Origin: Thermodesulfobacteriota bacterium
GTDB lineage: Bacteria > Desulfobacterota > Desulfobulbia > Desulfobulbales > SURF-16
DNA length: 64,000 bases
NCBI GenBank assembly: GCA_034723545.1
Contig: JAYEPA010000110.1
Coordinates: 1,242 to 65,241 of the forward strand
Reading direction: 5' to 3'
In this document: positions 4,108-48,349 of the stretch, one piece after another
How positions within the stretch are numbered: the stretch's first letter is position 1
Layout of the letters: the number at the start of each line of letters is the position of its first letter
Notes under the pieces: model-generated
Database searches by the model: none
The model's input: only the letters and a program-made list of their open reading frames with translations
What the model was told of the DNA's origin: nothing
Program-made: the position numbers and the translations under genes

Positions 4108-4134
4108 ATGTACGTTCCCAAGGAGAATATGGTC

Positions 4135-4524
4135 ATGAATTATGGCATAGATCAAGATAGATTAGTCGCAATAGACAACATTATAAAAGAGGATCTGATT
4201 GAAATAGGCGTTGACTACGCCATCATGATCGATACAGCCGGAAATACCATCGCAAAATGCGATAGTGGGGGACAAGATTATGATGTAGCGTCTCTCGCGG
4301 CCCTGGCTGCCGGGAATTATGCCACGGTGGATGCCATGGCAAAGATAGTCGGTGAACAGGAATTTTCTCTTCTTTTTCATAAAGGAAAAAACATAAGTAT
4401 TCATTTCAGTACAATTAATGAAGAATTCTTGCTCATCATCTTATTTGGCAAGGAGGTATCACTCGGTTTTTTACGTCTGAAGGTGGCCGAGGCCATTGAA
4501 AAGATAAGAGGGCTCTGGAAATAA
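4135..4524 (+). CDS. mglB: Roadblock/LC7 protein, MglB-like
   Basis: LIEIGVDYAIMIDTAGNTIA...ASLAALAAGNYA...EFLLIILFGKEVSLGFLRLKV. AGGAG lies 9 nt upstream of ATG 4135; in-frame ATGs at 4108 and 4129 are also possible. It sits directly upstream of mglA, as in the Myxococcus mglBA operon. Confidence 0.7.
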   Translation: MNYGIDQDRLVAIDNIIKEDLIEIGVDYAIMIDTAGNTIAKCDSGGQDYDVASLAALAAGNYATVDAMAKIVGEQEFSLLFHKGKNISIHFSTINEEFLLIILFGKEVSLGFLRLKVAEAIEKIRGLWK

Positions 4525-4605
4525 TTACATTACGGAGTTAAGGGTAGTTTATAGCCCTACCTGAACAGTTTATTTTTTTTAATTAGATACGAGAAGGGGA
4601 ACGAG

Positions 4606-5211
4606 TTGGCATTTATTAACATGAAAACCCGAGAAGTTCAGGTCAAGATAGTCTATTACGGTCCTGGCCGTGGCGGTAAGACCACGAATCTGGAATTTAT
4701 CAATGAGAAGTTCCGGGAGCGTATCAAGTCCAAAATGATCAGTATCAAGACCCATGGCGACCGAACTCTTTTTTTCGATTTTTTGCCCTTTGATATCGGT
4801 AAAATTAAGGGATACGATATTAAGATTCAGATGTATACGGTACCCGGCCAGGTAAAATATAACGCCACCCGGAAACTTGTTCTTAAAGGAGTGGATGGGC
4901 TAGTCTTTGTCGCCGATGCCATGGAGGAAAGGAGAAAACACAATCTGCTTTCTCTGAAACAGCTGCAGGAAAACCTGACCACATACAGAAAGAATATTTT
5001 TAAAATACCACTAGTCCTTCAATATAATAAATTTGATTTAAAAGATCAGGATGTTCCTCTTTTGTCTCTTGCAACAATAGAACAGGATCTGAACGGAAAA
5101 TTAAACGTTCCTTCCTTTGCCGCCAGTGCCTTAACAGGAGAAAATGTTGTCCCGACTTTAAAAAAGATTATTTCCGTCACAATGGCAGCGATACAGAAGG
5201 AATTGCGATAG
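4606..5211 (+). CDS. mglA: MglA-type Ras-like small GTPase
   Basis: Near-collinear with Myxococcus MglA by eye: MAFIN, KIVYYGPGRGGKTTNL (P-loop), TLFFDFLP, YTVPGQV (switch II), LKGVDGLVFVADA, QYNKFDL. TTG start with GAAGGGGA upstream. Confidence 0.85.
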   Translation: MAFINMKTREVQVKIVYYGPGRGGKTTNLEFINEKFRERIKSKMISIKTHGDRTLFFDFLPFDIGKIKGYDIKIQMYTVPGQVKYNATRKLVLKGVDGLVFVADAMEERRKHNLLSLKQLQENLTTYRKNIFKIPLVLQYNKFDLKDQDVPLLSLATIEQDLNGKLNVPSFAASALTGENVVPTLKKIISVTMAAIQKELR

Positions 5212-5298
5212 TGACTGTCTGAAAATCCACTTTATACCGGAATAAAGAGATTTTGTAAAAAGTGGTTGTTTAGAAGAACGCGAAATAGGAGGTTGTTT

Positions 5299-7092
5299 GT
5301 GAACACGGATATCAGAAGCGAAGCTGAAGGCCAGTTTGAAGATCTCATGGGCGGATCTGTAGAAATGCCAGAAACGGCGGTAGAAGACTTCATGGTTGGG
5401 GATGTGCAAGAGGCCACATCCCCTGAAGAAGATCTCATGATAGACGATGTGGAAAAAATCGAAATTATTCCCGCCTCTGATGAGCAGAAAGTCAGTGAAA
5501 CAATACAGGCTCTGAAGACAGCAGTATTAGCCTTTGAGTGGGAGATCAACGATGAAAACATGGAGAGATTCAATTTCGAGGTGAGCCACTTAAAGGGGAT
5601 ATGGCGCGATGACAAACTTCTGCAGATTTTTATTCAAATTCTCGAGGCCTTGGGGAAATATATCACTGGTGCCAGGGTAAAAGCGCATCCTGACTCGGTA
5701 AAACTTCTTCTTTCCGTTTATGAGGCTCTTGAAAAAGTCGTTACTTCTCCACGATTAACCCCCAGGGGGAAGAAAAAAATTCTCTATGCCGAAGTTGAAA
5801 AGTACGACGATTTAAAGGCTGAGATTACTAGCCGCCCGGAAAGGGTTCAGAAAACAGGGACTGAAGAACAAGCTGCCGAATCAGCGCCTGCCGGTGCATC
5901 ATCGATGATGGCTTCACATGGTGGAGTTGGAGGTGATGAGCTTATTGTTGAACGTGGTGATCATGAGGAGTTTCCCGAGCTTGATGCCCGGCTTGATTCT
6001 TTTTTTGATGAAGAGTCCCTGCCGGACAGTGGGCATCATGGAGATATTTCCAGTTCTGAAGTGCCGGCCCATCCCGAAACTGAAAGTTGTCCGGCGGTGG
6101 ATAATCTCATTGATGATATGTTTAGTGATGTCATCCACAAGGGAAAGAAGGATTCTGATGTTTCCCCTGAACAAGGATCGGCCGGAGAGGAGGACACTTT
6201 CCTTGTTGGAGAAGATGTTGACGATACCGTTGAGACGGTCACTTCCCTCGATGTGGACCAGGAGGTGATTCTTGGCGTCGCGGAAGAGGAGGAAGGGCCT
6301 TCCGTCATTGGTGACGTAGATTCTCTCAGTCTTGATCTTGGCGAAGAAGATCAGGAGATTGTTTTGGAAACAGCGGAGGAACAAAGTGAAGAATCAGTGG
6401 AGGGCATGATCGATGATTTTTTTGGCGAAGAAGATCAAGTCACTTCCCCTCCGTTACAATCAGAAGTTCCTGATACCTTACCCGCTTCGCTGGAAGAAGT
6501 CTTTACGGATTTAGCCGAGGCCGAACAGGTTGATGATGATTTGGCGGAGCGACTTTGCTCGGAAGTCGCCGAACTGCTGAAGGTCTTGCATGGCCAACCT
6601 TCATTGGTGACGATTGCCGCACTTCTCGCGTCCCTGAGCGGAGATCTAAAAAAAGGGTCTTTACCTTTCCGAACAAAGGCAACCGGTATCCTTCTTGAAA
6701 TACATAAAAGTCTAATCGTAACGGTTGATGCAGACGACACTGAAGTTCCACAGCTTGTATCCAATGCCGTGAAAAAATATCTTCTCTGGAAGGAAGAGAT
6801 GTTTTCGGTCCTCTCTTTGGGAGCTGAAAATTCAGAAGCCCAGCCAGACAAGATTGAGTCTGCCCAATCGGATAATGAAACTTCTGTTGAAGAGGAGGAG
6901 GGAATTTTACTTCTTGAACCCGAGGCCGAGGTTAAAGAAGAGGACGAAGACGTGAGTGGCATGGTTATGGCTGAAGAGGTTCCGGAGCAACTCTGCGATG
7001 TTTCGGGGGAAGAGCAGGTTGCCTCTGAGGCCGATTCTTTTCCCAAAGAAGGTATATGGTCAAAAATAAAAGGTATTTTTTCCAAGAAATAA
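5299..7092 (+). CDS. Hyper-acidic hypothetical protein (about 598 aa)
   Basis: GTG 5299 has AGGAGG 6 nt upstream (the ORF track start is 5266). A D/E-rich centre lies between two helical regions. Motifs LDSFFDEE, IDDMFSD and IDDFFGEE are present. No family recognised. Confidence 0.6.
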   Translation: MNTDIRSEAEGQFEDLMGGSVEMPETAVEDFMVGDVQEATSPEEDLMIDDVEKIEIIPASDEQKVSETIQALKTAVLAFEWEINDENMERFNFEVSHLKGIWRDDKLLQIFIQILEALGKYITGARVKAHPDSVKLLLSVYEALEKVVTSPRLTPRGKKKILYAEVEKYDDLKAEITSRPERVQKTGTEEQAAESAPAGASSMMASHGGVGGDELIVERGDHEEFPELDARLDSFFDEESLPDSGHHGDISSSEVPAHPETESCPAVDNLIDDMFSDVIHKGKKDSDVSPEQGSAGEEDTFLVGEDVDDTVETVTSLDVDQEVILGVAEEEEGPSVIGDVDSLSLDLGEEDQEIVLETAEEQSEESVEGMIDDFFGEEDQVTSPPLQSEVPDTLPASLEEVFTDLAEAEQVDDDLAERLCSEVAELLKVLHGQPSLVTIAALLASLSGDLKKGSLPFRTKATGILLEIHKSLIVTVDADDTEVPQLVSNAVKKYLLWKEEMFSVLSLGAENSEAQPDKIESAQSDNETSVEEEEGILLLEPEAEVKEEDEDVSGMVMAEEVPEQLCDVSGEEQVASEADSFPKEGIWSKIKGIFSKK

Positions 7093-7105
7093 TTTTGATG
7101 AATTC

Positions 7106-7190
7106 GTAAAAACTATAGAAACCACAGAGTCCACAAAGGTAACTTGTTTTAATAATAGAGATTTCTCTGTGGTAAGAAAAAGATTTTTAC
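7106..7190. repeat. CACAGAG-type hairpin repeat (degenerate copy)
   Basis: GTAAAAACTA...CCACAGAGTCCACAAAG...CTCTGTGG...TTTTTAC, between convergent genes. The terminal GTAA (minus strand, 7187-7190) contains the TAA stop of the YcaO gene. Confidence 0.45.
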
Positions 7191-8932
7191 GGATTCAACA
7201 ATTCATCCAACTGATCACGGGCAAAAATAATCTCCGGGTCAAGGGCCAGAGCCAGTTGGAAAAAATGAATCGCCTCTTTATTTTTTTCAAGTTTTCGGTA
7301 GTTTACTGCAAGGTTGGCGTAATCTATGGCCGAAGAGGGTAAAAGTTCCACGGCCCGCTCAAAGTGGCTGATGGCCGTTTCGTACTCCTCCAGTTTAAAA
7401 TTACAGACCCCCATGATGTTATGTATGTCATGCCTTTCTTCATCCACGGCCAGGCCTTTCTTCAGGACAACGAGCGCCTCGGCAAACAGACCGAGATTTT
7501 TCAGGCAATCTCCCATATAAGAATAGATATAGGGCAGATCTTCTTCCTCGGGATGAAGCTCCAGAGCCCGTCGCAGATGCTCAAGGGCTTCTTCCAGAGC
7601 TCCAAGGGAAATAAGATTTTTGCCCAGATAAAATTCAATGTAATAGGCCTGCGGTAGAACTTTTTTCATTCTTCGCAGATATTCATTCGAAAGCGCCGGA
7701 TCAGCGACTCTCTCGGTGACAAGTTTGGCTGCAAAGAGACCCACATTGTGGATTCTGGATCTTTCCCGGAAATGAACGCCCGGCACAAAGACATAAACCG
7801 CCGGGATCTTGAGCCGTGGATGCGTGACATCAACAACATAGACTTCCAGACCCAGTTTCGCCAGGGCCGTCACACAATTTTCAATCTCCTCCCTGATATT
7901 GTCGCTGCTGATATCCACCATTTCCGTCACGGGAATCGATGATTTCCCGCCAGTCACATATTCGGCGTCTGTCATGGACAACGGCTTTGGCAGTCCGCTG
8001 GCAATGTAATTGGACTGGGAATTGAAATCGCCGGCCAGTTGCGCCACTTCTGTAATGGCGCGGATAATTGATTTTTCAGGATGAGGAGTAGTGCCTGCCG
8101 TAAAGACAATTTCACTCGATTCCGGAAAAGTGGCCCGGTCTATGGCCAGGGCCGCTACTGTGGGAATACCGGTATCCAGGGTGAAATCGTTGAGATAAAG
8201 TTCAATATTGCAGTTTTTAAATTTTTCAAGCAGGGCAATGGCCATGGGATCACGCAATGAATCCTTGTCAATGGCTGGTGTTTCCAACTTATCATGACAC
8301 ACCACGGCGGAAACATGTCGTTCCACAACTTCGCAAAGCCCCTGGCTTATTGCCTCTTCGAGTGTGTTGCCGGCCGAGGAGCCGTTAAATTCATTAATGG
8401 CATAAAACCAGCTGAAAGGGATTAGGATCTCTTCCTGATTATTGAGATTTGTGGCCCAGACCCATTGCATGGGAATGTCTGTCAGCAGTTGTTCCAGGAT
8501 TTTCGGTGACGTTGTCTGGTCGTGGACGGACTGCAGCATTTTTTCCAGGGGCAGGAGAGGGTACCCTTTCTTTTTAATCCGGGTGTAACTTTCGGTGAAA
8601 AAATGATCCGTGTCCTGCATAAAGCTGAAGAAACTGAACCGTTCAGCCAGTTCCATGCAGGCGCTGGCCTGGGCCTGTTCCGGAGTGCTGCCCTTGCCCA
8701 TCTGTTTTTTCGTGCCGACAATTTTTTCAGCATCCTTGCCACAGACACTGAAGTAAACCGGAATTTCAAGGCGGCCGTTGTCGATACGTTTCACCTCTTT
8801 TAAGACATCAAGATTTTCTTTTTTTAGTCTTTCCCAAAAATGCTTTACGGTTTCTTCCGGTGAACAGGCCTTGTCAAGATCCTGGGTATAGTTTTTAAAA
8901 CAGTTGGTCAGGCGAATTGTTTTCTTCTGCAT
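7187..8932 (-). CDS. ycaO: YcaO-domain protein with C-terminal TPR repeats
   Basis: YcaO signatures MGKGSTPEQAQASACMELAERFS and SSAGNTLEEAISQGLCEVVERH. The last roughly 130 aa are TPR-like (LGALEEALEHLRRALELHP..., YETAISHFERAVELLP..., KEAIHFFQLALALDP). Confidence 0.85.
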   Translation of the reverse strand: MQKKTIRLTNCFKNYTQDLDKACSPEETVKHFWERLKKENLDVLKEVKRIDNGRLEIPVYFSVCGKDAEKIVGTKKQMGKGSTPEQAQASACMELAERFSFFSFMQDTDHFFTESYTRIKKKGYPLLPLEKMLQSVHDQTTSPKILEQLLTDIPMQWVWATNLNNQEEILIPFSWFYAINEFNGSSAGNTLEEAISQGLCEVVERHVSAVVCHDKLETPAIDKDSLRDPMAIALLEKFKNCNIELYLNDFTLDTGIPTVAALAIDRATFPESSEIVFTAGTTPHPEKSIIRAITEVAQLAGDFNSQSNYIASGLPKPLSMTDAEYVTGGKSSIPVTEMVDISSDNIREEIENCVTALAKLGLEVYVVDVTHPRLKIPAVYVFVPGVHFRERSRIHNVGLFAAKLVTERVADPALSNEYLRRMKKVLPQAYYIEFYLGKNLISLGALEEALEHLRRALELHPEEEDLPYIYSYMGDCLKNLGLFAEALVVLKKGLAVDEERHDIHNIMGVCNFKLEEYETAISHFERAVELLPSSAIDYANLAVNYRKLEKNKEAIHFFQLALALDPEIIFARDQLDELLNP

Positions 8933-9015
8933 TGTTTTTTTCTGGTATCAAATATCGGATGTCAGGTTATCGGGTAAAGAGGAAAGCTGGTGCAAAGATT
9001 CACTGTCACCTTAAT

Positions 9016-9123
9016 GTAAGCGATCACAGGCACCGAATCTTACCGCGATCAGGGCGTCTGACATAGAGGGGCTATAGTCACCCGCCCTGCTTACGGTAAT
9101 CTCAGGCATCTGTGAACGCTTAC
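9016..9123. mobile_element. Palindromic MITE-like repeat with GTAAGCG termini (copy g)
   Basis: GTAAGCGATCACAGGCACCGAATCTTACCG ... CGGTAATCTCAGGCATCTGTGAACGCTTAC are inverted arms. The core GATCAGGGCGTCTGACATAGAGGGGCTATAGTCACCCGCCCTGC is related to the other family cores. One arm plus about 60 bp of flank recurs at 23172-23262. Confidence 0.55.
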
Positions 9124-9187
9124 AGAATAAGGAGTTACTCGAAAGTTTGGTGTTTTTACCCCGTGATTGGTTACATGCTTAATAGCA

Positions 9188-10483
9188 TCAGTCTCTTAAC
9201 GCTGGATTAAAATAGCCAAAGCGTAAATCTGGAAAAAGATTTTTCAACTTACTCAGCCAGTTCTGCATTCCCATGGGCTTTTGTTTGGGACGATACTGGA
9301 CGGTTTCAAGGTACCAGTCCGGATCCATATTTAGATTGCGCAACTGGATTAGATCAGGCCGATAGAGATTGATAAGATCGCAAAGCGCTTGAAATTCATC
9401 CGGGTCATCCGTAAAACCAGGCAGAATGAAATAATTGAGGGATACAAAGCGGCCTGCTTTTTTCATGACCAAAATTGATTCCAGGACGTTTTTAAAACTA
9501 AAATCTTTTGGTCGGTAGTAGAGGGTATGGCATCCCTTGCGGCTACTGTTTATGCTGACTCGGATGGAGTCGAGTCCGGCTGCGGCAAGCCGCTCCACCG
9601 CCGCCGGCAGACTGGCGTTGCTGTTGAGATTGATTGTCCCGCAGTCTGTCTGTTTGCGGATCAATCGTATTCCTTTTTCCAGTGTCTCGGCCTGGAGCAG
9701 TGGTTCCCCCTCGCAACCCTGACCGAAACTTACAACACCTCCTTTTACCTGATTGAGATGTGGCACGGCAATTTCAGCAATTTCTCCTGGAGAGGGCACG
9801 AAACGGATGCGATCCTGGGTGGAAGGGCAGCACCCCGAGGCTTGCAGTGAAATGCAGCCCACACATTTCGCATTACATGCCGGCGAGGTTGGCAAAGGGG
9901 CCTCAAAACGGTTGAGAAAAAAATTTTTCGCGGCAGGACAGCCATAGGTCAGGCAACATTTGCCAAGATGCTGAATGAGGCGGTTACGGGGAAATTTATT
10001 TAATTTTTTTACGGTTTTTTCTCGAAGCAACTGTGGATTGAAACCTGCGAAATCCTGCCTGGGATCATTATCACTACGAAAACCGCAGACCCAGAATTGA
10101 TCCTGATACCAGCCCACCGCAGTATAGGCAAAAAGCGGCAGCGGTATTGGCTCGGGCCTGATTTTTTCAAAGGCAGCGGTGTAAATCGCTGTATGGGCCG
10201 GCGCCATAAATGCCGCTACTGCCTGGATCCCTTCTCTAGCATCGTCAGGGCTGTTGTCAAGCAGAACAGGATCGCCGGTTTCCGGATCAATACCAATAGG
10301 CAGACGGTCCGGCAGGACAAAAAGATCGCTTCCCTCGGGCAGAGGGATCATTTCCGTGAGTTGTGGCTTGAAAAACCAGTGACCGCTTCGGCCGGCCATG
10401 GTGAGGCCCGGGAAATCCTTGATCTCACCCCTGCGATTAGCAAAGACAAGAGAGGGCTGCTTATCGGGATGAATCGGCTTCAT
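9188..10483 (-). CDS. Radical SAM enzyme with a roughly 190-aa N-terminal extension, function unknown
   Basis: CNAKCVGC (CX3CX2C) and GCEGEPLL motifs. Additional Cys clusters CCLTYGC and SGCCPS. Not RimO/MiaB-like by eye. Confidence 0.8.
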   Translation of the reverse strand: MKPIHPDKQPSLVFANRRGEIKDFPGLTMAGRSGHWFFKPQLTEMIPLPEGSDLFVLPDRLPIGIDPETGDPVLLDNSPDDAREGIQAVAAFMAPAHTAIYTAAFEKIRPEPIPLPLFAYTAVGWYQDQFWVCGFRSDNDPRQDFAGFNPQLLREKTVKKLNKFPRNRLIQHLGKCCLTYGCPAAKNFFLNRFEAPLPTSPACNAKCVGCISLQASGCCPSTQDRIRFVPSPGEIAEIAVPHLNQVKGGVVSFGQGCEGEPLLQAETLEKGIRLIRKQTDCGTINLNSNASLPAAVERLAAAGLDSIRVSINSSRKGCHTLYYRPKDFSFKNVLESILVMKKAGRFVSLNYFILPGFTDDPDEFQALCDLINLYRPDLIQLRNLNMDPDWYLETVQYRPKQKPMGMQNWLSKLKNLFPDLRFGYFNPALRD

Positions 10484-10496
10484 TGATTAACGACTG

Positions 10497-10550
10497 GTAA
10501 CTATTCAGGGAAGGTTAAAAATGCGCCTAAGCGCCATGCTGAACAGTTAC
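10497..10550. mobile_element. 54-bp mini hairpin element with GTAAC...GTTAC termini and an 8-bp TSD
   Basis: GTAACTATTCAG ... CTGAACAGTTAC, flanked by AACGACTG at 10489-10496 and again at 10551-10558. Confidence 0.7.
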
Positions 10551-10598
10551 AACGACTGGAGGTTTAAGGTGACTAAGAAACGGCACGGAGAATTGATT

Positions 10599-11030
10599 TT
10601 ACTGCCGGGGGCGAATTTGATTCATTACCGAATCCACTGCTTTATAAACATCAAGATCATCGCCAAAAATATCTTGAATTTTTGGGTGTTTAATCAGGTC
10701 TTCAACAATGTATTGGAGGAGATAAAGACTGATAAAATTCGCATCGGGCACAAGCTGTCTCACCGGGGCGATTTTAAACTGGATGTCAAACTCCTCCATG
10801 TCCTGGAGTTTTTGAAAAAGTGCTGCAAAAACTTCACGGATGGCACTATCGGAGGATGTTTCAATAATGTGTTGATCCAGGAGGCGCTGCACCAGCTTCA
10901 TCGCCAGTTCGTCAGCATATTTGCAGGCAGCCGACAACATGAAGCGTCTTTCTTTTTCCCGTTTCCTGTCAATGCTCCTTACAGCCCTGTCACCAGCACC
11001 GTAAGGATTGTGGGCATGATGGCCACCCAT
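10599..11030 (-). CDS. Hypothetical protein (about 143 aa)
   Basis: AGGAGA lies 7 nt upstream of ATG 11030. The ORF track extends to 11159, but that N-terminal part is AT-rich and not protein-like. The body is helical and acidic/basic. No family recognised. Confidence 0.5.
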   Translation of the reverse strand: MGGHHAHNPYGAGDRAVRSIDRKREKERRFMLSAACKYADELAMKLVQRLLDQHIIETSSDSAIREVFAALFQKLQDMEEFDIQFKIAPVRQLVPDANFISLYLLQYIVEDLIKHPKIQDIFGDDLDVYKAVDSVMNQIRPRQ

Positions 11031-11256
11031 ACGTATTTCTCCTGTAATGTAATAGTCTGTTATTTTAAAATTGTAAGATCTGAATTCTTGCGTACTTGTA
11101 CACTTTGTAAAGTAATTCAGCCACAATTTTTTCTTGTTATCTGGGAAGTTCCAAGTCAACGACGAAAAGCAGCGTGATGAGATTATTTTTGCCTGTCAAT
11201 TTCGTAACAGTTCACCAAGGGCTAAAATTTTTGTGGATACTCCTTATTGTAAAAGT

Positions 11257-11397
11257 TTACCAGTGCCCCAGATGTGTGCAGGTAAGCGAAACATAGCGAA
11301 GACTCCGAGCAGGCTGGCGAACTATAGTAAGCCTATGTGAGCTAGCCTGATCGTGCGCAGGTAGCGAGGGACGAGACTCCGGATGGGGTGCTGGTAA
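11257..11397. mobile_element. Palindromic MITE-like repeat (copy c)
   Basis: TTACCAGTGCCCCA ... TGGGGTGCTGGTAA inverted ends. The core CAGGCTGGCGAACTATAGTAAGCCTATGTGAGCTAGCCTGATCGTGCG is shared with the copies at 35090 and 62540. Confidence 0.55.
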
Positions 11398-11401
11398 TCT
11401 T

Positions 11402-11887
11402 TTACTCAATTTCATCCCGCAGCCATGCCTCGACCTCGGAGATGGTTGGCTGGCGTCCGGTACATTTAATTTCATCATTTATGATCAGGGCCGGGGTGCT
11501 GATCACGCCGTGACGCCAAATCTCATCAAGATCATGGATTTGATCAATATCCGCCTTGACTCCCAGACGCTGGAGGATATCAAAGATCATGCTGTTCAGT
11601 TTGTTACAGCTCACGCAACCGGGGCCGAGGATACGAATTGAAAGGCCTTGCTCATTGTTTTCCTCACTTGCACCGATATGTCGCAGATACTCCCGCTTCA
11701 GCGCCTCACGATAAGCGGTTTCAGCTTGGGGCGGGATATAATTTTGTCCGGCCATCTGTGAATAGATCAAATCAACGGCTTCCTGGACAGGTAGCCTCCT
11801 GCCTGCAGCCTCTTGAAGAGAAATATCCAGGCCAATTAAGCCGACGCTTGCGTTATCAATTTTAATGGTACGCTGATGTTGTTTCAT
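11402..11887 (-). CDS. Thioredoxin-fold protein (small redox-active-disulfide type) with an unknown 80-aa N-terminal domain
   Basis: C-terminal IRILGPGCVSCNKLNSMIFDILQRLGV...TPALIINDEIKCTGRQP is typical of the small glutaredoxin-like thioredoxin family. The gene starts 22 nt after the upstream helicase gene stop. Confidence 0.65.
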   Translation of the reverse strand: MKQHQRTIKIDNASVGLIGLDISLQEAAGRRLPVQEAVDLIYSQMAGQNYIPPQAETAYREALKREYLRHIGASEENNEQGLSIRILGPGCVSCNKLNSMIFDILQRLGVKADIDQIHDLDEIWRHGVISTPALIINDEIKCTGRQPTISEVEAWLRDEIE

Positions 11888-11909
11888 GATCTAACGTCGA
11901 CTCAACCCT

Positions 11910-14900
11910 TTAAAACAGACTCAACTGCGTCGCTTTGGATTTCTTTTTTCTCTTTTGGTGGATGATTTGCAGGTCTTTTGCCGGGAGCTCCCTGATGAAT
12001 CGTGAAATATGCTGCCTGGCGGATTGTCCTCCACCTCGTCCGGTAGAACAGGAGAGGGTCAGTCTTTCCATGGCCCTGGTCATGCCCACATAAAAAAGAC
12101 GCCGCTCTTCTTCAATATCTGTCCGCTCAAAGGCAAGATAAGGGGTCAGCCCCTCTTCGAGACCGGTGATAAAGACCGACGGGAACTCCAACCCCTTGGC
12201 TCCGTGCAAAGTTACAAGAGTTACGGCCTCCGCCCTGTCGTCGTAAATGGTGGATGTCCGATTGTGTCTGAGATGAGCGGCGAAATCGTTCAGGGAACGG
12301 AAAACCATGGCAAGTTCAAGGAGTCTTTTTGCCTGGGGACAGTCCGGCTTGACATGAAGAAAAGACATTGCCGTTTTTAATACCGAAATCAAGCCATCCC
12401 CGCTCACTTTGCTGTTAATCTGTTCGAATTGACCTTTAATTTCTTTGATGATGGTCCGGGCTCTTGGGGGAAGATTTAGCTGGTCAAATCCGCTGAAAAA
12501 GTCAGTATCCGCAAGAGGCGGATGGTTTTCAATTTTACTTGTTGTAGCCGGGCCGATGCCGGGCATTTCTTTCAATAGATTAATGAAATCGACCGGTTCC
12601 GCTTTGCGGACGGCAATCTGCAGCCAATGATAGAGCGCTCTTATTTCTTTTTTCATGAAAAAAGGAGTGGCGCCGACGAGCTGGAAGGGGATCCCTCGTC
12701 GTTCCAGAGCCTCAGCCAGAGGAAGCGCCTGACGGGAAAGCCGGTACAAAACAGCAAAATCACTGAAACCCGTTTCACTTAACCCGTCACCGCCCCGGCC
12801 GCTGTTAATGGAAAAGCTGCTGATGCCGCCCATGGTCTCTTCAATGGTCTTGACAATAAATTCAGCTTCAGCCTTGGGAGATGTTGCCTGATAAAAACTG
12901 ATTTGACCAGGCATCCTGAGCTGGGGTTGCAGCCTGACATCACTGTGTATCGTGTTGTGACGGATCAATTCACTGGCTGACTGCAAAATAACAGGCGCGG
13001 AACGGTAATTACGATTCAGCGTCAAACACAAAGTCTCTTTATTTTCACTGAATTGAAAAAAGAAGTTGAGATTACTTCCCCGAAAAGCGTAAATTGCCTG
13101 GTCAGGATCGCCGATGGCAAACACGTGGGCGGATTCGGCCAGTATTTCGACAAGATCATACTGGGCCTGATTCAAATCCTGGAATTCATCAATAAAAAGA
13201 AAATGAACACTTTTTTTGACACGATCGGCAAATTCAATATCAGTCATCAGAAGACGGACGAAAAAAGGAATGACCGCCTCAAGATCGATAACCTTGCGCT
13301 GCTTCAATTCGGCAAAATAGTCCCGCAGGCGGGAGTCCATCACAGTGAGATCATTTGTGGCGGTTTGCAGCGTGCTGAGATGGGTGTCAATTGCCTTTTT
13401 AAGTTGTGTCAGTTCTTTTCCAGCAGTTGACGGAAAAAGATGACGCAGAACAAGATCCCGGTTTTCATCGCCCAGCACGGTAAGGTCCGTTTCTTTTTTG
13501 CGCAGCCAGCTCAGGCAAAAATTGTGAAAGGTACCGATAAAGACTTTTTCTCTATCCTTTCCGCATTCCCTGATGATGCGTTCTCTGACCTCATCGGCGG
13601 CCCGGTTGGTAAAGGTGATGACGGTTATGTTTTTCGGTGATTTTTTTTGTCTTAGAAGATGGGCGAGACGGGCCACCAGGGTAAAGGTCTTGCCGGTGCC
13701 TGGTCCTGCTGAAACAAGAATTCTCCCGGCCTGGGAGTCAATGGCTGTCTGCTGTTCCGGGTTGATTTTTTCTGTTTTTTGCTGGGGAATCTGAATTGTT
13801 TCAGTAGAAAAAAGTAATGGGGTAATATTTTTTTTCGCGCGACTTTTTCTTTTTTTTGGCCTTTTTCCGCCGAACAGACTGAGCTGACCGGCAAGGGCAT
13901 CAATCTCACCATCCTCGAAAACGTGGATCACGCCGAATTCCCCGTCAAAACCGGGTTTTTTAATCACCTTGTTGGCGCGGATTCTTTTAATCGCCTCACC
14001 AAGTACGGTTGAGAAACCGTTAATCTCTTCAACAGGCGTCTCCAGCAGGAGGGTGAATTCCGAACCGAAACGGGAAATCACCCGGCAATATTCCTTCATG
14101 ACTGTCTTGCTGTTAGGGCCATAACCGGCGATTTCTCCGAGTACTTCGGCCAGGGGAATAAGGCTGTGAAAGCCCGGTGAACCGGGCGGATAGAAGGGTT
14201 TTTTACGGTCAGCCAGATCATAAACCCGGTGACTGACGCCAACGGTCAACGGCCGGCCGCAGACTGGGCAGATTGCGTTGATCCTGCGGGTCTCCAAGGG
14301 CTCCAGGCAGACCTGACATTTTCGGTGGCCGTCAAGATGATACTTACCTTCCTCCGGATAAAATTCAATGGTGGACTGAAACCCTTTGGCCGGATTTTTC
14401 ATGGCCTCCCGCATGGCAAAAAAATTAAAATCCGTATCAAAGAGATTGGCCTCGCGGCCAAGTTTGCCTGGGGAATGACAGTCTGAATTGGATATCAACG
14501 TATAGCCGTCAAGGGCCGAGATCAGCCTGTTCATGTCCGGATCCGATGACAGGCCGGTTTCCAGGGCGAAGATATGGCTGGTGAGGTCTCCGTAACAATC
14601 CTCAATCCTGTCAAAACCGGATCTTGAGCCAAAAAGAGAAAACCAGGGAGTCCAGATATGGGCCGGAACCAGAAAACCCTTCGGACAGTTCTCCAGCAGG
14701 ATTTCTAGAAGATTACGGGAGTCAAGACCAAGAATGGGCCGACCATCGGATTCAATATTGCCGATTCCGGCAAGGGTGGAATTGATTCGTTCCACAGAGG
14801 CAAAGTCCGGGGCAAAAAGGAGATTATGGACCTTGCGAACCTGATCGTGCCGTTTATATATGTTGCTGATCTCGGAAGTAAGGACAAAACGCACCGGCCG

Positions 14901-15146
14901 CTCTTCAGGCGTGACTTGATCAAGAGCAGGGCTAACCTTTTCATCTTTCAGCCTGAAAAAACCCGGTTCGGCCGGAATCAGCTTTTCTTTCAGCTGCGAA
15001 AACCAACCTGGATGAGTAAAATCCCCGGTCCCGATGACCTGGATGCCCTTGACCCGAGCCCAGGCAAAGAGTCCGGCAAGGTTACTGGCCTTGCTGGTGG
15101 CCCTGGAAAAGAGAGAATGGATGTGGAGATCGGCTATGTAATTCAT
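11910..15146 (-). CDS. Endonuclease-Q-like PHP nuclease fused to a UvrD/PcrA-type SF1 helicase
   Basis: N-terminal about 420 aa: ADLHIHS, GTGDFTHPGW, NSDCHSPGKLGREANLF, GKYHLDGH, CPVCGRPLTVGVSHRV, IPLAEVLGEI, FGSEFTLL. Basic linker GGKRPKKRKSRAKK. Helicase motifs SAGPGTGKTFTL, IDEFQDLN, NYRS, LHGAKGLEF, FYVGMTRA. Confidence 0.85.
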   Translation of the reverse strand: MNYIADLHIHSLFSRATSKASNLAGLFAWARVKGIQVIGTGDFTHPGWFSQLKEKLIPAEPGFFRLKDEKVSPALDQVTPEERPVRFVLTSEISNIYKRHDQVRKVHNLLFAPDFASVERINSTLAGIGNIESDGRPILGLDSRNLLEILLENCPKGFLVPAHIWTPWFSLFGSRSGFDRIEDCYGDLTSHIFALETGLSSDPDMNRLISALDGYTLISNSDCHSPGKLGREANLFDTDFNFFAMREAMKNPAKGFQSTIEFYPEEGKYHLDGHRKCQVCLEPLETRRINAICPVCGRPLTVGVSHRVYDLADRKKPFYPPGSPGFHSLIPLAEVLGEIAGYGPNSKTVMKEYCRVISRFGSEFTLLLETPVEEINGFSTVLGEAIKRIRANKVIKKPGFDGEFGVIHVFEDGEIDALAGQLSLFGGKRPKKRKSRAKKNITPLLFSTETIQIPQQKTEKINPEQQTAIDSQAGRILVSAGPGTGKTFTLVARLAHLLRQKKSPKNITVITFTNRAADEVRERIIRECGKDREKVFIGTFHNFCLSWLRKKETDLTVLGDENRDLVLRHLFPSTAGKELTQLKKAIDTHLSTLQTATNDLTVMDSRLRDYFAELKQRKVIDLEAVIPFFVRLLMTDIEFADRVKKSVHFLFIDEFQDLNQAQYDLVEILAESAHVFAIGDPDQAIYAFRGSNLNFFFQFSENKETLCLTLNRNYRSAPVILQSASELIRHNTIHSDVRLQPQLRMPGQISFYQATSPKAEAEFIVKTIEETMGGISSFSINSGRGGDGLSETGFSDFAVLYRLSRQALPLAEALERRGIPFQLVGATPFFMKKEIRALYHWLQIAVRKAEPVDFINLLKEMPGIGPATTSKIENHPPLADTDFFSGFDQLNLPPRARTIIKEIKGQFEQINSKVSGDGLISVLKTAMSFLHVKPDCPQAKRLLELAMVFRSLNDFAAHLRHNRTSTIYDDRAEAVTLVTLHGAKGLEFPSVFITGLEEGLTPYLAFERTDIEEERRLFYVGMTRAMERLTLSCSTGRGGGQSARQHISRFIRELPAKDLQIIHQKRKKKSKATQLSLF

Positions 15147-15252
15147 GATACATTTTTGACATTTGTAGAGTTCATCATTAAGGTAGGAGGCATATTAAAT
15201 GGTTTAAAATGAGCTGTCCATGGTTTTAATATTTCCCTTACAGGAGTTGAAC

Positions 15253-16161
15253 ATGTCTGAATATATTGATGTCATCATTGTCGGTGCCGGTCCCGCCGGT
15301 TTACAGGCCGCTGTCCATGCAGCCAGAAAAAAGGCAAATGTCCTGATTCTGGGAAAACCCGAGCAATCTAATATTTATCGGGCCCATGTGGAGAACTATC
15401 TTTGCGTTGACGGTGTGACGGATGGGGGTGAAATGGTCACGATCGGTCTGGAGCAGGCCACCCGTTTCGGCGCCGAATTTGTGGAGGAGGATGTCCTTGG
15501 CATCGAACAGGAAGGTAATTTTTATATCGTCAGGTCGGAAAACAGAAAATACATCGCTCGCAGTGTTATTCTGGCAACCGGAACGTCGAAAAAAAAGCTG
15601 AAAGTCAAAGGTGAAAAAGAATTTACAGGCCGGGGAGTCAGTTACTGCGTAGATTGTGACGCCAATTTTTTTCGAAATGCCAAGGTCGCGGTGGTGGGCA
15701 ATGGCAGCGGTGCCGTGGACGGAGCCTTGACCCTTCTTAACTATGCCTCTGAGGTTTATCTTGTTGCCAAGGAACTTAATGTTTCACGGGGGTTAAGGGA
15801 GAGATTGTCCGTCAGCGAGGTGAAGCTAAAGGAAGGCGTCTGGCCCAGTGCAATCGCAGGTAAAAACAACGTGGAGTTCTTTATTCTTGATGATGGCTCT
15901 TCTCTTGAAGTAGAAGGGGTCTTTGTCGAGCTTGGCGCCAAGGGCGCCATTGAACTGGCCACAACCCTCGGGGTCACGCTTGACATGGAGACTTTCAGCC
16001 ATATAGAAGTAAACAGAAAGATGGAAACCAATCTGCCTGGGGTTTACGCTGCCGGTGACATCACCGGTCAGCCGCACCAGATGGCAAAAGCCGTGGGAGA
16101 GGGTTGCGTGGCAGGCTGGAATGCAGCCAATTATGTCAATAAGCTGAAAAGAAAAGAGTAG
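15253..16161 (+). CDS. Thioredoxin-disulfide-reductase-family FAD oxidoreductase
   Basis: VIIVGAGPAGLQAAVHAAR (FAD), SYCVDCDANFF (CxxC), VAVVGNGSGAVDGAL (NAD(P)H), GVYAAGDITG. AGGAG lies upstream of ATG 15253 (the ORF track start is 15220). Confidence 0.75.
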   Translation: MSEYIDVIIVGAGPAGLQAAVHAARKKANVLILGKPEQSNIYRAHVENYLCVDGVTDGGEMVTIGLEQATRFGAEFVEEDVLGIEQEGNFYIVRSENRKYIARSVILATGTSKKKLKVKGEKEFTGRGVSYCVDCDANFFRNAKVAVVGNGSGAVDGALTLLNYASEVYLVAKELNVSRGLRERLSVSEVKLKEGVWPSAIAGKNNVEFFILDDGSSLEVEGVFVELGAKGAIELATTLGVTLDMETFSHIEVNRKMETNLPGVYAAGDITGQPHQMAKAVGEGCVAGWNAANYVNKLKRKE

Positions 16162-16180: not shown

Positions 16181-16627
16181 ATGAATTTTATGGAGTTGGC
16201 CTTGATCGAGGCAGAAAAAGCGGCTGGCCGTGGAGAGGTTCCTATAGGCGCCGTACTTGTTGATTCGGAAGGTTATATACTGGCCGCGGACAGCAATCGA
16301 ACTATCGAACTCCATGATCCCTCCGCCCATGCCGAAATTCTCGTCATGCGGCGGGCTGGTGCAAAAACAGAAAATTACCGGCTCACCGGCACCACCCTTT
16401 ATGTGACGCTTGAGCCCTGCGTCATGTGCGCCGGAGCCATGGTTCATGCCCGTATTGACAGGTTGATTTTTGGCGCATTCGACCCCAAGGGCGGTGCTGT
16501 GCTGTCCTGCTATCAGGTCGGACAAGACAGAAATTTAAACCATTCATTTTCCGTGCAGTCCGGGGTGATGGCCGAAGAGTGCGCTTCTCTTCTTCGCTGT
16601 TTTTTTCAGCAGAGAAGAAAAAGGTAA
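16181..16627 (+). CDS. tadA: tRNA adenosine(34) deaminase
   Basis: HAEILVMR and TLEPCVMCAGAM zinc-deaminase motifs, about 148 aa. Confidence 0.9.
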   Translation: MNFMELALIEAEKAAGRGEVPIGAVLVDSEGYILAADSNRTIELHDPSAHAEILVMRRAGAKTENYRLTGTTLYVTLEPCVMCAGAMVHARIDRLIFGAFDPKGGAVLSCYQVGQDRNLNHSFSVQSGVMAEECASLLRCFFQQRRKR

Positions 16628-16714
16628 TTTTTTACTAAAAATTTTCATTTTTTTCTTTCAAAACCATCTTTTTAAGGGTAAGTTATCCCGCTTGATTGGG
16701 TTAATTCCCAACAA

Positions 16715-16802
16715 GGAGAGGTGACCGAGAGGCCGAAGGTGCACGACTGGAAATCGTGTGTACGGCAACGTACCGAGGGTTCGAATCCCTCCTTCTCCGC
16801 CA
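16715..16802 (+). tRNA. tRNA-Ser (anticodon GGA)
   Basis: GGAGAGGTGACCGAGAGGCCGAAGGTGCACGACTGGAAATCGTGT...GGGTTCGAATCCCTCCTTCTCCGCCA. It has a class II long variable arm, the acceptor stem pairs, and CCA is encoded. Confidence 0.9.
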
Positions 16803-16818
16803 AATTTGATATCGGTTT

Positions 16819-16931
16819 GATAGCCAGGTCCCGCGCAACAGAGGCTCATGAACTCCGTCAGGTCCGGGAGGAAGCAGCGGTAATGAATCCCTTCTGTGTG
16901 CCGCGGGGGTGCCTGGCTATCATTTTTTTTA
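16819..16931 (+). ncRNA. ffs: Signal recognition particle RNA (small 4.5S type)
   Basis: Conserved GTCAGGTCCGGGAGGAAGCAGC domain IV motif. The 5' GATAGCCAGG pairs with the 3' CCTGGCTATC, and a T-run follows. Confidence 0.8.
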
Positions 16932-16955
16932 CCTTTGATGAACCCGTAAAAAGTC

Positions 16956-17061
16956 TTTTTTTCACCACAGAGCACACAGAGCACACAGAGAGCACTGAGA
17001 ATTTTTTTTATTATAATTAGTTGTCTCAGTGCGCTCAGTGTACTCTGTGGTTAGTTTTTAC
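16956..17061. repeat. CACAGAG-type hairpin repeat
   Basis: GTAAAAAGTC...CCACAGAGCACACAGAGCACACAGAGAGCACTGAG / CTCAGTGCGCTCAGTGTACTCTGTGG...TTTTTAC. Close homologue of the copy at 48350-48460. Confidence 0.7.
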
Positions 17062-17088
17062 GAAATCATCACCTTTCCCCTGTGATGC

Positions 17089-18909
17089 ATGTCCTATCTT
17101 GTCCTTGCCAGAAAATGGCGACCTCAGCATTTTAATGAAGTGATCGGCCAGCAACCGGTTGTCCGCACGCTGCAAAACGGCTTGAAGCGGAACCGGGTGC
17201 CCCACGCCATGCTGTTCAGCGGTGTAAGAGGGGTTGGAAAGACCACTCTTGCCCGGATCATGGCCAAGGCTTTGAACTGCCGGAGTGAGAAAGAAGACCG
17301 GCCCTGCAATCAATGTGATTCATGCCTGGAAATCACAAAGGGTTCTTCCGTAGATCTCCATGAAATCGACGGCGCTTCAAACCGCGGTATCCAGGAGATC
17401 CGTGAACTTAAGGAAAATATACGTTTTTTCCCAACCAGGTGTCGCTATAAAATTATCATTATTGATGAAGTCCACATGCTCACAACCGAGGCCTTTAATG
17501 CTTTGCTCAAGACCTTGGAAGAACCGCCCAAACATGTTTTTTTCATGTTTGCCACGACTGAGCTGCATAAAATCCCCATCACCATTCTTTCCCGATGTCA
17601 ACGTTACGAGTTGAAGAGAATCCCGTTTGCCGAGCTTCACGCTTTTTTCAAAAAAGTTGCTGAAAAGGAGGGTGTGGCTGTTTCCGCCAAGGCCTTATCC
17701 GTCATTACGCGTGAAGCGGACGGCAGCGTTAGGGATGGATTGAGTCTGCTGGATCAGATGTTTTCCTTTGGCGGTGACCAGGTGAGAGATGAGGACGTAA
17801 CCGAGGTCCTTGGTCTTGTTGATCATACGGTTTTTGAAAAACTGGCTGCAAGTCTGCTAAGCGGCGATCTGGCCCAGGGTCTTGAGTTGCTTGACCGGAC
17901 CTATCGAGCCGGCATTGACATAAAGAGGTTTGCCAGCGATCTCTTAAGTTTTTTCAGGACTGTCCTGATCTGTAAGACAAGCCCCCATCCCGGTGAGCTG
18001 CTTGATATCTCGGATATGGAGCTTCAGGCGGCGGAAAAAATCGCGGCCGGTCAGAGCGCGGAAACACTGTATCAGTATTTTCATCTTCTCCTTCAAGGGA
18101 TTGAGAAGATGCATTATTCCCCGCGTCCCAGGATGATTCTTGAAATGGCCCTGATCAAGGCAGCTCAGTCCGGTCAGGTTGTTCCTGCCTCAGTCCTGCT
18201 TGAACGCTTTGATGATTGCTTTCGTCAGTCACTTTCTTTACCCATACAGCAGGTTGCTCAAACAGAACCTGTTGTCGTTGAAACGAATCAGCCAGGGGAT
18301 ATCAAAGAGAAAGATGGCTTAGATTCACGGGAACCGTCCGCAGTTAAAGAGAAAGTGAGTGAGAAGCAAATTCTTTTCCCAAAACCGGCGAAGATAGAAA
18401 AGGATGAGAACAGGGCATCTTCTCCCAAAGCAGAGAAAGAAAAGTCAGCCTCAGGGGACGAGGAAAAGACAGAAATAACTCAACCCGAACCCTCCGGAGC
18501 AAAATCGCTTGCCCCTGCCACGCATCAGAAGGATGTCCGGAAAAACTGGAATGATTTCGCCGCCTATGTCAAGGAGCGAAAACCGTGGATGTCCCATGTT
18601 TTGCAGCTGTGTGACCGGGTCGAGGAGCATGATAACGCCCTGATTATGATATTTTCACAGCCGACGGACTCTAAGATCCTCGAGCAGAGTGAAAACATGA
18701 AATTGTTGACCCGCTATGTCCAGGATTTTTTTCAAAAGGAGTTGAAGCCGAGGCTGCGGGTACGGGGGGGAGAGGATGCTTCCGGAAACAGTGACGACAG
18801 TGTCCGTGAAGAACGACGCGCTCTGGCTAATGATCCCCTTGTCCGCATGGCAACGGAGGTCTTTGGCGGCCGGGTGGCTAGTGTACGAACGGGCCCGAAA
18901 TTCAGATAA
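17089..18909 (+). CDS. dnaX: DNA polymerase III subunit gamma/tau
   Basis: HAMLFSGVRGVGKTTLARI (Walker A), IIIIDEVHMLT, SRCQRYELKR. Low-complexity K/E-rich linker before the C-terminal domain. Confidence 0.9.
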   Translation: MSYLVLARKWRPQHFNEVIGQQPVVRTLQNGLKRNRVPHAMLFSGVRGVGKTTLARIMAKALNCRSEKEDRPCNQCDSCLEITKGSSVDLHEIDGASNRGIQEIRELKENIRFFPTRCRYKIIIIDEVHMLTTEAFNALLKTLEEPPKHVFFMFATTELHKIPITILSRCQRYELKRIPFAELHAFFKKVAEKEGVAVSAKALSVITREADGSVRDGLSLLDQMFSFGGDQVRDEDVTEVLGLVDHTVFEKLAASLLSGDLAQGLELLDRTYRAGIDIKRFASDLLSFFRTVLICKTSPHPGELLDISDMELQAAEKIAAGQSAETLYQYFHLLLQGIEKMHYSPRPRMILEMALIKAAQSGQVVPASVLLERFDDCFRQSLSLPIQQVAQTEPVVVETNQPGDIKEKDGLDSREPSAVKEKVSEKQILFPKPAKIEKDENRASSPKAEKEKSASGDEEKTEITQPEPSGAKSLAPATHQKDVRKNWNDFAAYVKERKPWMSHVLQLCDRVEEHDNALIMIFSQPTDSKILEQSENMKLLTRYVQDFFQKELKPRLRVRGGEDASGNSDDSVREERRALANDPLVRMATEVFGGRVASVRTGPKFR

Positions 18910-19071
18910 AGGAACCAACATCCTCACTCCGGTTGTCTCGAAGTCTACGCTTATCGGCTGAATAATTATCAGATACAGTCATTTCGTTGTCCAAAATTTT
19001 ACACTTTCTCGGCTTCAATTTACGCTGTTAGAGATAGAGATAAATGCATCAATATAAGGAGAAAAATTGAA

Positions 19072-19389
19072 ATGAATATGGAAGATATTATGAAACAGGC
19101 CCAGCAGTTTCAGCAACGCATGGGCCAGGTTCAGGAAGAACTTGCCGCCCAGACCATCACCTCATCAGTGGGCGGAGGCATGGTGACAGCAACAGTGAAT
19201 GGGAAACATGAACTTTTGTCTCTAACTATTGAAAAAGAGGTCATTAATCCTGATGACCCAGCCATGCTTCAGGACCTGGTTGTGGCGGCTGTCAACGATG
19301 CCATGAGCAAGGCCGGGGAAATGGCCCAGTCCGAAATGGGTAAGTTGACCGGCGGTTTGAATATCCCCGGTCTTTCCGGCCTGTCATGA
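19072..19389 (+). CDS. ybaB: Nucleoid-associated protein YbaB/EbfC
   Basis: 105 aa, MKQAQQFQQRMGQVQEELA...GGGMVTATVNGKHELLSLTIEKEVI. AAGGAG upstream. Confidence 0.9.
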   Translation: MNMEDIMKQAQQFQQRMGQVQEELAAQTITSSVGGGMVTATVNGKHELLSLTIEKEVINPDDPAMLQDLVVAAVNDAMSKAGEMAQSEMGKLTGGLNIPGLSGLS

Positions 19390-23171: not shown

Positions 23172-23262
23172 GTAAGAAGAAGATTCGGTGCCTGTGATCG
23201 TTTACAGAATAAGGAGTTGCTCAAAAAAATGGCTATTTTAGCCGTGATTGGTTGCGCCGTTT
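23172..23262. repeat. Partial copy of the 9016-9180 repeat (one arm plus flanking module)
   Basis: AAGATTCGGTGCCTGTGATCGTTTACAGAATAAGGAGTTGCTC...CCGTGATTGGTT matches the right arm and flank at 9095-9175. Confidence 0.45.
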
Positions 23263-33519: not shown

Positions 33520-33528
33520 TTGGGATAA

Positions 33529-33596
33529 CCACAGAGCACACAGAGATCACAGAGATTTTTTACTTTTTTTCTCCGTGTGCTCTGTGATCTCTGTGG
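33529..33596. repeat. CACAGAG-type hairpin repeat
   Basis: CCACAGAGCACACAGAGATCACAGAG ... CTCCGTGTGCTCTGTGATCTCTGTGG. Confidence 0.65.
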
Positions 33597-48327: not shown

Positions 48328-48349
48328 GGGTGTTTCTCTTTGCAGTTCC

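Follow-up and report, generated by a model that had tools for sequence, protein, structure and literature searches.

A YcaO-TPR gene and a radical-SAM gene share a syntenic block in Desulfobulbia and may function separately

Does a gene for a YcaO enzyme that lies beside a gene for a radical S-adenosylmethionine (radical-SAM) enzyme belong with it to one modification pathway, or have the two simply remained neighbors? This question is raised by positions 7187-11887 of a 64-kb stretch of contig JAYEPA010000110.1 (assembly GCA_034723545.1; the whole stretch is called the window here), which comes from a sulfur-cycling Desulfobulbales bacterium. Gene calls and domain scans placed four adjoining genes on the minus strand of this region: a protein in which a YcaO domain is followed by tetratricopeptide repeats (YcaO-TPR; 7187-8932, 581 amino acids (aa); Pfam YcaO plus TPR_1/TPR_2), a radical-SAM enzyme (9188-10483, 431 aa; PF04055), a protein with no Pfam domain that we call p143 (10599-11030, 143 aa), and a thioredoxin-fold protein (11402-11887, 161 aa; Thioredoxin_3/TIGR00412). 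An earlier account made from the letters alone (the sequence-only reading) had given the same four genes, strand, domains, and cysteine motifs, and had suggested that they could be a protein or peptide modification set. Having determined domains, motifs, family distributions, and synteny statistics, we think it somewhat probable that the locus is a Desulfobulbia-specific syntenic block of separable genes, with a stand-alone YcaO-TPR protein and an independent radical-SAM enzyme, rather than a dedicated four-gene modification operon.

Relatives of the radical-SAM gene were scanned for in one genome per species, and the best 80 of the 432 species with a relative, all of them Desulfobulbia, were used; the nearest relatives likewise all come from Desulfobulbia. 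Co-occurrence was measured within 10 kb, and this set of 80 loci, like the 80 distant loci described below (about 160 loci in all), is the best-scoring subset of a larger set of matches. YcaO-TPR lay within 10 kb downstream of the radical-SAM gene, on the same strand, in 36 of the 41 loci whose downstream sequence extends to 9.9 kb or more, and was directly adjacent to it in 16 of 60. The p143 gene was found within 300 bp upstream of the radical-SAM gene in 44 of 73 loci and within 10 kb upstream in 32 of 36. Over the same 10 kb upstream, the thioredoxin-fold gene (8/36 loci), the PHP-UvrD fusion helicase gene (8/36), and the TrxR-like gene (7/36) were kept less often, and no gene for the acidic protein, MglA, or MglB of the window occurred within 10 kb in any of 41 loci. 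The sequence-only reading had proposed co-occurrence of the YcaO and radical-SAM families as one test, and within Desulfobulbia the order p143, radical-SAM, YcaO does recur on one strand, far more often than the other flanking genes are kept.

The same loci give little room for a tight operon. Non-adjacent radical-SAM and YcaO genes have 1.4-9.6 kb of other, unrelated genes between them, and some of these lie on the opposite strand; the set, annotated by eye, includes genes for cytochrome-c-peroxidase-like (opposite strand) and DnaJ-like proteins, PAS sensor kinases, a metallophosphoesterase, a ferredoxin, and MreB-like and cupin proteins. On a tree of the radical-SAM enzyme, the compact arrangement was restricted to the window's subclade. 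The Electrothrix/cable-bacteria clade keeps p143 and the radical-SAM gene together with no YcaO gene within up to 10 kb, one locus (L044) has the radical-SAM and YcaO genes without p143 within 10 kb (L040 and L057 likewise, in shorter upstream flanks), and in GCA_975972275.1 the radical-SAM and YcaO genes lie about 450 kb apart on one 922-kb contig. The nearest outgroup encodes a PHP-domain protein upstream of its radical-SAM gene, and this protein gave no tblastn match at 1e-3 to PHP-UvrD of the window. Overall, the arrangement looks like an ancestral block, TrxR | PHP-UvrD, thioredoxin-fold gene | d3 | p143, radical-SAM ... YcaO, in which d3 is a siroheme-protein gene described below, with later lineage-specific losses and insertions.

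Outside the order, the association was not found. Metagenome contigs scanned with a profile of distant radical-SAM members yielded 80 loci from gut, rumen, bioreactor, soil, wetland, and marine sources, whose enzymes are 34-48% identical to that of the window. Within 10 kb of the radical-SAM gene, tblastn and hidden Markov model searches detected neither a YcaO domain nor p143 nor the thioredoxin-fold gene in any of these 80 loci, and the sole match was a TPR-only protein. By eye, the neighbors of the distant radical-SAM genes (rho, murA, fba, pyrG, pth, dnaX-ybaB-recR, rpmE, uppP, rpoD, and sbcCD) are housekeeping genes with no common theme. At the level of the family, co-occurrence of YcaO and the radical-SAM enzyme is thus not supported, which is part of what the sequence-only reading had named as refuting it. 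Because the radical-SAM gene has no YcaO neighbor outside the order, its chemistry appears to be independent of YcaO, and we infer that the enzyme probably works on its own.

A further arrangement recurs in some loci. In L092, L099, L100, L104, L111, L112, L121, L126, and similar loci with Firmicutes-like neighbors, the radical-SAM gene follows rho immediately, and dnaX-ybaB-recR comes a few genes later. The window also carries tadA-dnaX-ybaB-recR (16181-19988), on the other strand and 6-9 kb from the radical-SAM gene; the proximity in both settings may be a coincidence.

The spacing of the four genes in the window was clarified by a close relative, L164 (GCA_029933005.1), which is 90-93% identical at the nucleotide level and in which PHP-UvrD, p143, radical-SAM, and YcaO genes are consecutive, with gaps of 158, 114, and 80 bp. 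Compared with L164, the window has two extra segments, 9026-9177 and 11191-11908 (718 bp), and since both are absent from the relative, two of the wide gaps of the window are recent insertions. Segment 9026-9177 corresponds to an element that resembles a miniature inverted-repeat transposable element (MITE-like; 9015-9136, no strand) between the radical-SAM gene and YcaO. Each of its 27-nt inverted ends (9015-9041 and 9110-9136) finds a match at 23180-23218, the two in opposite orientations. A related copy spans 23180-23243, and the element widens the radical-SAM-YcaO gap from 80 bp to 255 bp. That L164 lacks it at such high identity marks it as a recent and mobile insertion. Segment 11191-11908, also missing from L164, contains the thioredoxin-fold gene and a dispersed repeat at 11246-11360 (no strand) that lies between this gene and p143. 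The repeat matches 38236-38350 at 86-87% in inverted orientation and has partial copies at 35068-35171 and 62544-62618. It belongs to a family of about 115 nt, with four copies in the window at 84-96% identity and in both orientations, and it occupies the gap where related genomes have the siroheme-protein gene. The sequence-only reading had listed three repeat elements between the genes; those at 9016-9123 and 11257-11397 were recovered with the slightly different bounds given here, while 10497-10550 has no second copy within the window.

Since L164 keeps p143, radical-SAM, and YcaO genes and lacks the thioredoxin-fold gene, this gene is dispensable in a near-identical locus, and its inclusion as a member of the set had to be dropped. 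Where it occurs in other loci it adjoins PHP-UvrD and TrxR, and the thioredoxin-fold protein probably stands outside the set and goes with these neighbors. The protein matches PF13192 (E-value 2e-20) and TIGR00412 (77.7 bits, cutoff 62) over residues 83-156, an MTH895/ArsE-type domain with CVSC at residue 91; residues 1-80 gave no match, the permissive Pfam scan included.

We next consider the YcaO-TPR protein. Membership of the YcaO superfamily was taken to require the motif Sx6-7Ex3Qx3ExxER and a score over a curated cutoff. The protein scored 267.6 bits against PF02624 (cutoff 25.7, E-value 2e-79, residues 78-386) and 131 bits against TIGR00702 (cutoff 75.65), and it has an intact ATP motif, Sx6Ex3Qx3ExxER, which lies at residue 186 and reads SAGNTLEEAISQGLCEVVER. 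Pfam recognized about four canonical TPR_1/TPR_2 repeats in the tail, at residues about 430-575. A YcaO domain followed by canonical TPRs and the conserved Ser of the ATP motif are the features of DVU2210 of Desulfovibrio vulgaris Hildenborough, and by architecture and ATP motif YcaO-TPR resembles this protein and is not of the E. coli type. The sequence-only reading had instead credited it with the overall architecture of the E. coli YcaO (EcYcaO). This did not hold, as the protein scored 64.6 bits against NF040716 (YcaO_for_S12), whose cutoff is 700, and aligned to PDB 4q84 only in the ATP core, residues 161-297.

The best models for YcaO-TPR were TIGR03266, the McrA-thioamidation YcaO family, and the generic YcaO kinase domain; TIGR03266 was the best NCBIfam match, at 157.9 bits against a cutoff of 365. 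The best solved structures by sequence were LynD, TruD, and MJ1094. By the NCBIfam and PDB sequence comparisons together, its closest kin are the McrA-thioamidation and azoline YcaOs, and EcYcaO is distant. It does not qualify as an azoline cyclodehydratase, as it reached 125.3 bits against TIGR03604 (SagD type; cutoff 219.25) and has no E1-like or Ocin-ThiF partner and no conserved small open reading frame (ORF) in the gaps between the four genes. Its isoelectric point (pI) is 5.21 (5.38 for the YcaO domain by itself), compared with about 4.4 for EcYcaO.

The sequence-only reading had noted that no TfuA or E1-like partner and no precursor peptide were apparent, and our scans agree. None of the nine ORFs across 4.1-16.2 kb of the window encodes TfuA, an E1-like protein, or Ocin-ThiF, and no gene called in L083 or L164 encodes TfuA either, the rest of the genome not having been searched for it. 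The gaps between the four genes hold no conserved small ORF or precursor peptide. A search of these gaps for a Gly/Cys/Ser/Thr-type precursor, as that reading had recommended, returned ORFs of 12-32 codons, none visibly Cys-, Ser-, or Thr-rich, and the longest, of 32 codons, falls within the MITE-like element.

We consider that YcaO-TPR most likely acts alone and uses ATP to modify the backbone of a substrate protein. In such a scheme the YcaO domain would bind ATP and activate a backbone amide, the canonical TPR tail would recruit a folded protein substrate instead of a leader peptide, and attack by sulfide, in a sulfide-rich cell, would yield a backbone thioamide. By analogy, the chemistry is most likely thioamidation by sulfide, because there is no TfuA or E1-like partner, because of the nearest families, and because EcYcaO with uL16 and the TfuA-less methanogen enzymes provide precedents. 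Some methanogen YcaOs that act on McrA glycine work without TfuA, using sulfide.

The radical-SAM enzyme satisfied the superfamily definition of a CX3CX2C motif plus a core above the Pfam cutoff, with 47.3 bits against PF04055 (cutoff 29.5) over residues 198-363 only. Its cysteine motifs are CCLTYGC at 176, CNAKCVGC (the CX3CX2C motif) at 203, and SGCCPS at 216. No Pfam match was returned for the N-terminal ~190 residues even at E-values up to 10, and at E-values up to 0.01 the whole protein matched PF04055 only; SPASM/twitch and the MiaB/RimO domains (UPF0004 plus TRAM) were absent. Against the named families MoaA, PFL-AE, BlsE, NrdG, and TIGR04100 in NCBIfam, the enzyme scored 15-30 bits where the cutoffs are 131-400. 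It thus passes the cutoff of no named family, in agreement with the sequence-only reading, which had called it uncharacterized. A sequence search of the PDB with the family profile gave generic or noise matches only. An AlphaFold2 model (mean predicted local distance difference test (pLDDT) 88.5) has a β-rich N-terminal domain (~1-140), a helical linker that carries the cysteines C176 and C182, and a partial-barrel core, and Foldseek matched this model to generic cores only (HydE, BlsE, PFL-AE, LipA, and NifB; E-values 1e-7 to 1e-9, 13-21% identity).

An exhaustive search among 50%-identity cluster representatives found 944 relatives of the radical-SAM enzyme, including 219 at E<1e-30. Matches over the full length, at 33-55% identity, are numerous and show the N-terminal domain to be part of the family; among the members is DEFDS_0200 of Deferribacter desulfuricans (41% identity). 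Judged from these comparisons, the enzyme is a member of a broad, widely distributed, and uncharacterized family. Distant members retain C176, C182, the CX3CX2C triad (203-210), and C257 without exception. The CC pair at 218-219 shows no variation within the Desulfobulbia subfamily but is missing in several distant members, which sets this subfamily apart. An auxiliary Fe-S cluster is likely, given the N-terminal β domain and at least three extra conserved cysteines.

As for p143, it is an orphan protein specific to the lineage. The program-made ORF list assigns it 186 aa from an upstream TTG, while its homologs of 139-144 aa begin at the ATG that lies at 11030 in the window, with AGGAGA 7 nt 5' of this codon. 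A search returned 1061 homologs; the 120 listed have 138-200 aa, nearly all 139-144, and no Pfam domain, and the named ones among these 120 come from Desulfobulbales-type metagenome-assembled genomes. The protein is helical, its AlphaFold2 model (pLDDT 90.2) found no fold match in the PDB (best E-value 0.66), and its profile gave generic or noise matches only against PDB sequences. DUF507 came up in the permissive Pfam scan for 1 of 16 members at an E-value of 0.03, amid scattered noise, and was rejected.

The steadiest neighbor of p143 in other genomes is d3, a gene read in the divergent direction from p143, whose product of ~200 aa resembles siroheme sulfite/nitrite reductases and carries CX5C...CX3C. 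It adjoins p143 in 31 Desulfobulbia loci (for example L013 4720-5322, L026 8763-9365, and L001 4571-5203, where the ORF matches NIR_SIR) and remains with p143 even where p143 is several kb from the radical-SAM gene. There is no d3 gene anywhere in the window; the gene was lost or moved in the window's lineage.

Several points weigh against a block of separable genes with a stand-alone YcaO. The p143, radical-SAM, and YcaO genes always occur in this order and on one strand, while the other neighbors are kept in 0-22% of loci, and in the window's subclade only 50-300 bp separate the genes (114 and 80 bp in L164), a compact spacing compatible with co-transcription and with a lineage-specific functional link. 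Thioamidation is for its part a putative chemistry. The putative orthology to DVU2210 was drawn from architecture and a 20-residue motif, and the authors of the DVU2210 study prefer a direct action on molybdate (PMC7774982). The order and spacing of the three genes could mean that p143, the radical-SAM enzyme, and YcaO-TPR make up a Desulfobulbia-specific module that acts on the same protein or sequentially, p143 being a partner, chaperone, or substrate, and insertions between the genes being tolerated since each has its own promoter. We regard such a module as possible but tentative. The persistence of YcaO (36/41) and p143 (32/36) within 10 kb when the flanks have gone, and the tight spacing in the subclade, keep it alive, and the conservation of the CC pair (218-219) throughout the Desulfobulbia subfamily, as against its absence from several distant members, is on its side. 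However, the association occurs in none of the 80 distant loci, unrelated and partly opposite-strand genes fill 1.4-9.6 kb between radical-SAM and YcaO in most loci, and the two genes lie ~450 kb apart in GCA_975972275.1. Moreover, some clades have p143 and the radical-SAM gene without a nearby YcaO, others have the radical-SAM gene and YcaO without p143, and p143 away from the radical-SAM gene still adjoins the siroheme-protein gene. The more specific proposal that the three proteins form a thioamide-plus-radical protein-modification module, with a target possibly tied to dissimilatory sulfur metabolism, is doubtful; such a target is hinted at by the sat-linked phenotype of DVU2210 and by the siroheme-type gene next to p143 in 31 loci.

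The remaining alternatives concern the substrate of YcaO. We find it unlikely that YcaO-TPR acts on a small oxyanion by ATP-dependent activation of molybdate or sulfate analogs, as has been proposed for DVU2210. To our knowledge, no YcaO has a non-amide substrate, and the TPR domain argues for a protein partner. The proposal draws on the molybdate resistance of a sat-deletion strain upon DVU2210 deletion or the S195R exchange, yet E. coli that carries DVU2210 was not made molybdate-sensitive, and the authors allow for an indirect effect (PMC7774982); the location of moaE (DVU2212) two locus tags from DVU2210 (PMC10102598) fits the proposal. An E. coli-type YcaO, which would thioamidate uL16 or assist S12 modification with the radical-SAM enzyme in the place of RimO, is very unlikely here, even though YcaO-TPR shares with EcYcaO the stand-alone state, the lack of TfuA, and a C-terminal helical-repeat domain, and the JGI automatic annotation names homologs "S12 methylthiotransferase accessory factor". 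The NF040716 score (65 bits against 700) and the partial 4q84 alignment speak against it, as do the description of uL16-modifying YcaOs for Pseudomonadota and the lack of a MiaB/RimO family match for the radical-SAM enzyme in Pfam or NCBIfam; the pI of 5.2 against 4.4 may add to this. The cooperation of EcYcaO with RimO on S12, on which the sequence-only reading had drawn, is itself now doubted and has been superseded by the modification of uL16 (PMC13063428).

YcaO and radical-SAM enzymes co-occur in some pathways for ribosomally synthesized and post-translationally modified peptides (RiPPs), and the gaps do contain ORFs of 12-32 codons, so that the two enzymes might mature an overlooked small ribosomal peptide. 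We rejected this, as the most improbable of the readings considered, for want of a conserved small ORF in the gaps: the ORFs are not visibly Cys-, Ser-, or Thr-rich, the longest lies in the MITE-like insertion that L164 lacks, and other compact loci have gaps of 8-150 bp, with no space for a conserved peptide gene. The RiPP hallmarks RRE, E1, Ocin-ThiF, SPASM, and a nearby protease or transporter were not found, and the genes are core genes inherited vertically across the order at 60-78% identity, unlike RiPP islands.

The surroundings of the four genes are as follows. Upstream, the PHP-UvrD fusion helicase is encoded at 11910-15146 on the minus strand; its 1078 aa comprise an N-terminal TIGR00375/MJ0043-type PHP-like domain (residues 5-407) and a full UvrD/PcrA-type helicase. 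Beyond it lies the divergent TrxR-like gene (15220-16161), and the two are syntenic in several Desulfobulbia. A sub-threshold match to Rfam n00280, a Clostridioides small RNA inside a helicase gene, falls in the UvrD-like gene at 12043-12131 on the minus strand (36 bits against 65, E-value 0.003) and is probably conserved helicase coding sequence or chance rather than an RNA. Downstream, the plus-strand genes at 4108-7092 converge on YcaO and encode an MglB-like Roadblock protein, an MglA-like small GTPase, and an acidic protein of 608 aa (pI 4.1) with no family match, which L164 has as well but the other 80 Desulfobulbia loci lack. Four intergenic sites (7095-7138, 16928-17049, 33525-33622, and 48333-48471) carry members of a family of imperfect palindromes in which CGTAAAAA...CCACAGAG is combined with tandem CACAGAGCA units of 9 bp and the center is A/T-rich. 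One of these is just 3' of the YcaO stop codon, where this gene converges with the gene for the acidic protein, and the elements may be bidirectional terminators or resemble repetitive extragenic palindromic elements. In a promoter and terminator scan of 7000-12100, counts did not exceed those of shuffled sequence.

Stand-alone YcaOs that act on whole proteins are only now gaining substrates, namely McrA in methanogens and uL16 in E. coli (2026). The YcaO-TPR family is conserved across the sampled Desulfobulbales and has also been reported in Desulfovibrio. The present analysis narrows the search; the neighboring radical-SAM, p143, and thioredoxin-fold genes are not to be assumed to be partners of YcaO. 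Two uncharacterized families merit study in their own right, the ~430-aa radical-SAM family with its distinctive N-terminal domain and extra Cys ligands and the orphan 143-aa protein. With PFL-AE, BlsE, HydE, LipA, and NifB, the radical-SAM enzyme shares a partial TIM-barrel core with CX3CX2C, but it reaches no family cutoff, and its N-terminal ~190 residues and C176/C182/C257 pattern are unmatched in Pfam, NCBIfam, and the PDB.

Among characterized YcaOs, the methanogen enzymes that act on McrA glycine (TIGR03266; MJ1094, PDB 6pe3) provide the top NCBIfam model, at 158 bits, and MJ1094 aligns with residues 21-299 of YcaO-TPR. However, the score is under the cutoff of 365, no TPR domain was seen in TIGR03266 (376 positions) or MJ1094 (385 aa), and the host is not a methanogen. 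The azoline-forming LynD, TruD, and SagD (TIGR03604) have a YcaO domain that aligned at ~90 bits over residues 175-391, but the score of 125 bits is below the cutoff of 219, and the locus has neither a fused or neighboring E1-like or RRE domain nor a precursor peptide. EcYcaO was reported in 2026 to thioamidate ribosomal protein uL16, RimO alone sufficing for S12 and TfuA being absent in such systems, and its low pI (about 4.4), complementary to basic uL16, was flagged by the authors as a mark of uL16-modifying YcaOs (PMC13063428). Like YcaO-TPR, it stands alone with no TfuA or E1 partner or precursor peptide and has C-terminal helical repeats, and it acts on a folded protein; it differs in the NF040716 score (65 for YcaO-TPR against 700), in an alignment limited to the ATP core, in the canonical Pfam TPRs found here, in pI (5.2 against 4.4), and in phylum.

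MoaD-type carriers are ThiS-like thiocarboxylate sulfur donors, and moaE encodes the large subunit of molybdopterin synthase. The gene reported near DVU2210, two locus tags away, is moaE (DVU2212; PMC10102598), not a member of the radical-SAM family described here, and its proximity is a possible lead on a sulfur source and on the molybdate phenotype. DVU2210 itself has been described as a "YcaO-like TPR protein" whose native function is not known, with a sat-linked molybdate phenotype: a sat-deletion strain gains molybdate resistance through loss of DVU2210 or through S195R in its ATP motif (PMC7774982). What is known of DVU2210 is thus genetic, and the YcaO-TPR family already has a phenotype, tied to molybdate and sat, ahead of an assigned substrate. 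The likeness of the two proteins lies in a YcaO domain followed by a TPR domain, in hosts that are both Desulfobacterota of the sulfur cycle, and in the ATP motif, where SAGNTEEESILQGSCELVER of DVU2210 and SAGNTLEEAISQGLCEVVER of the window protein are identical at 14 of 20 residues by manual count.

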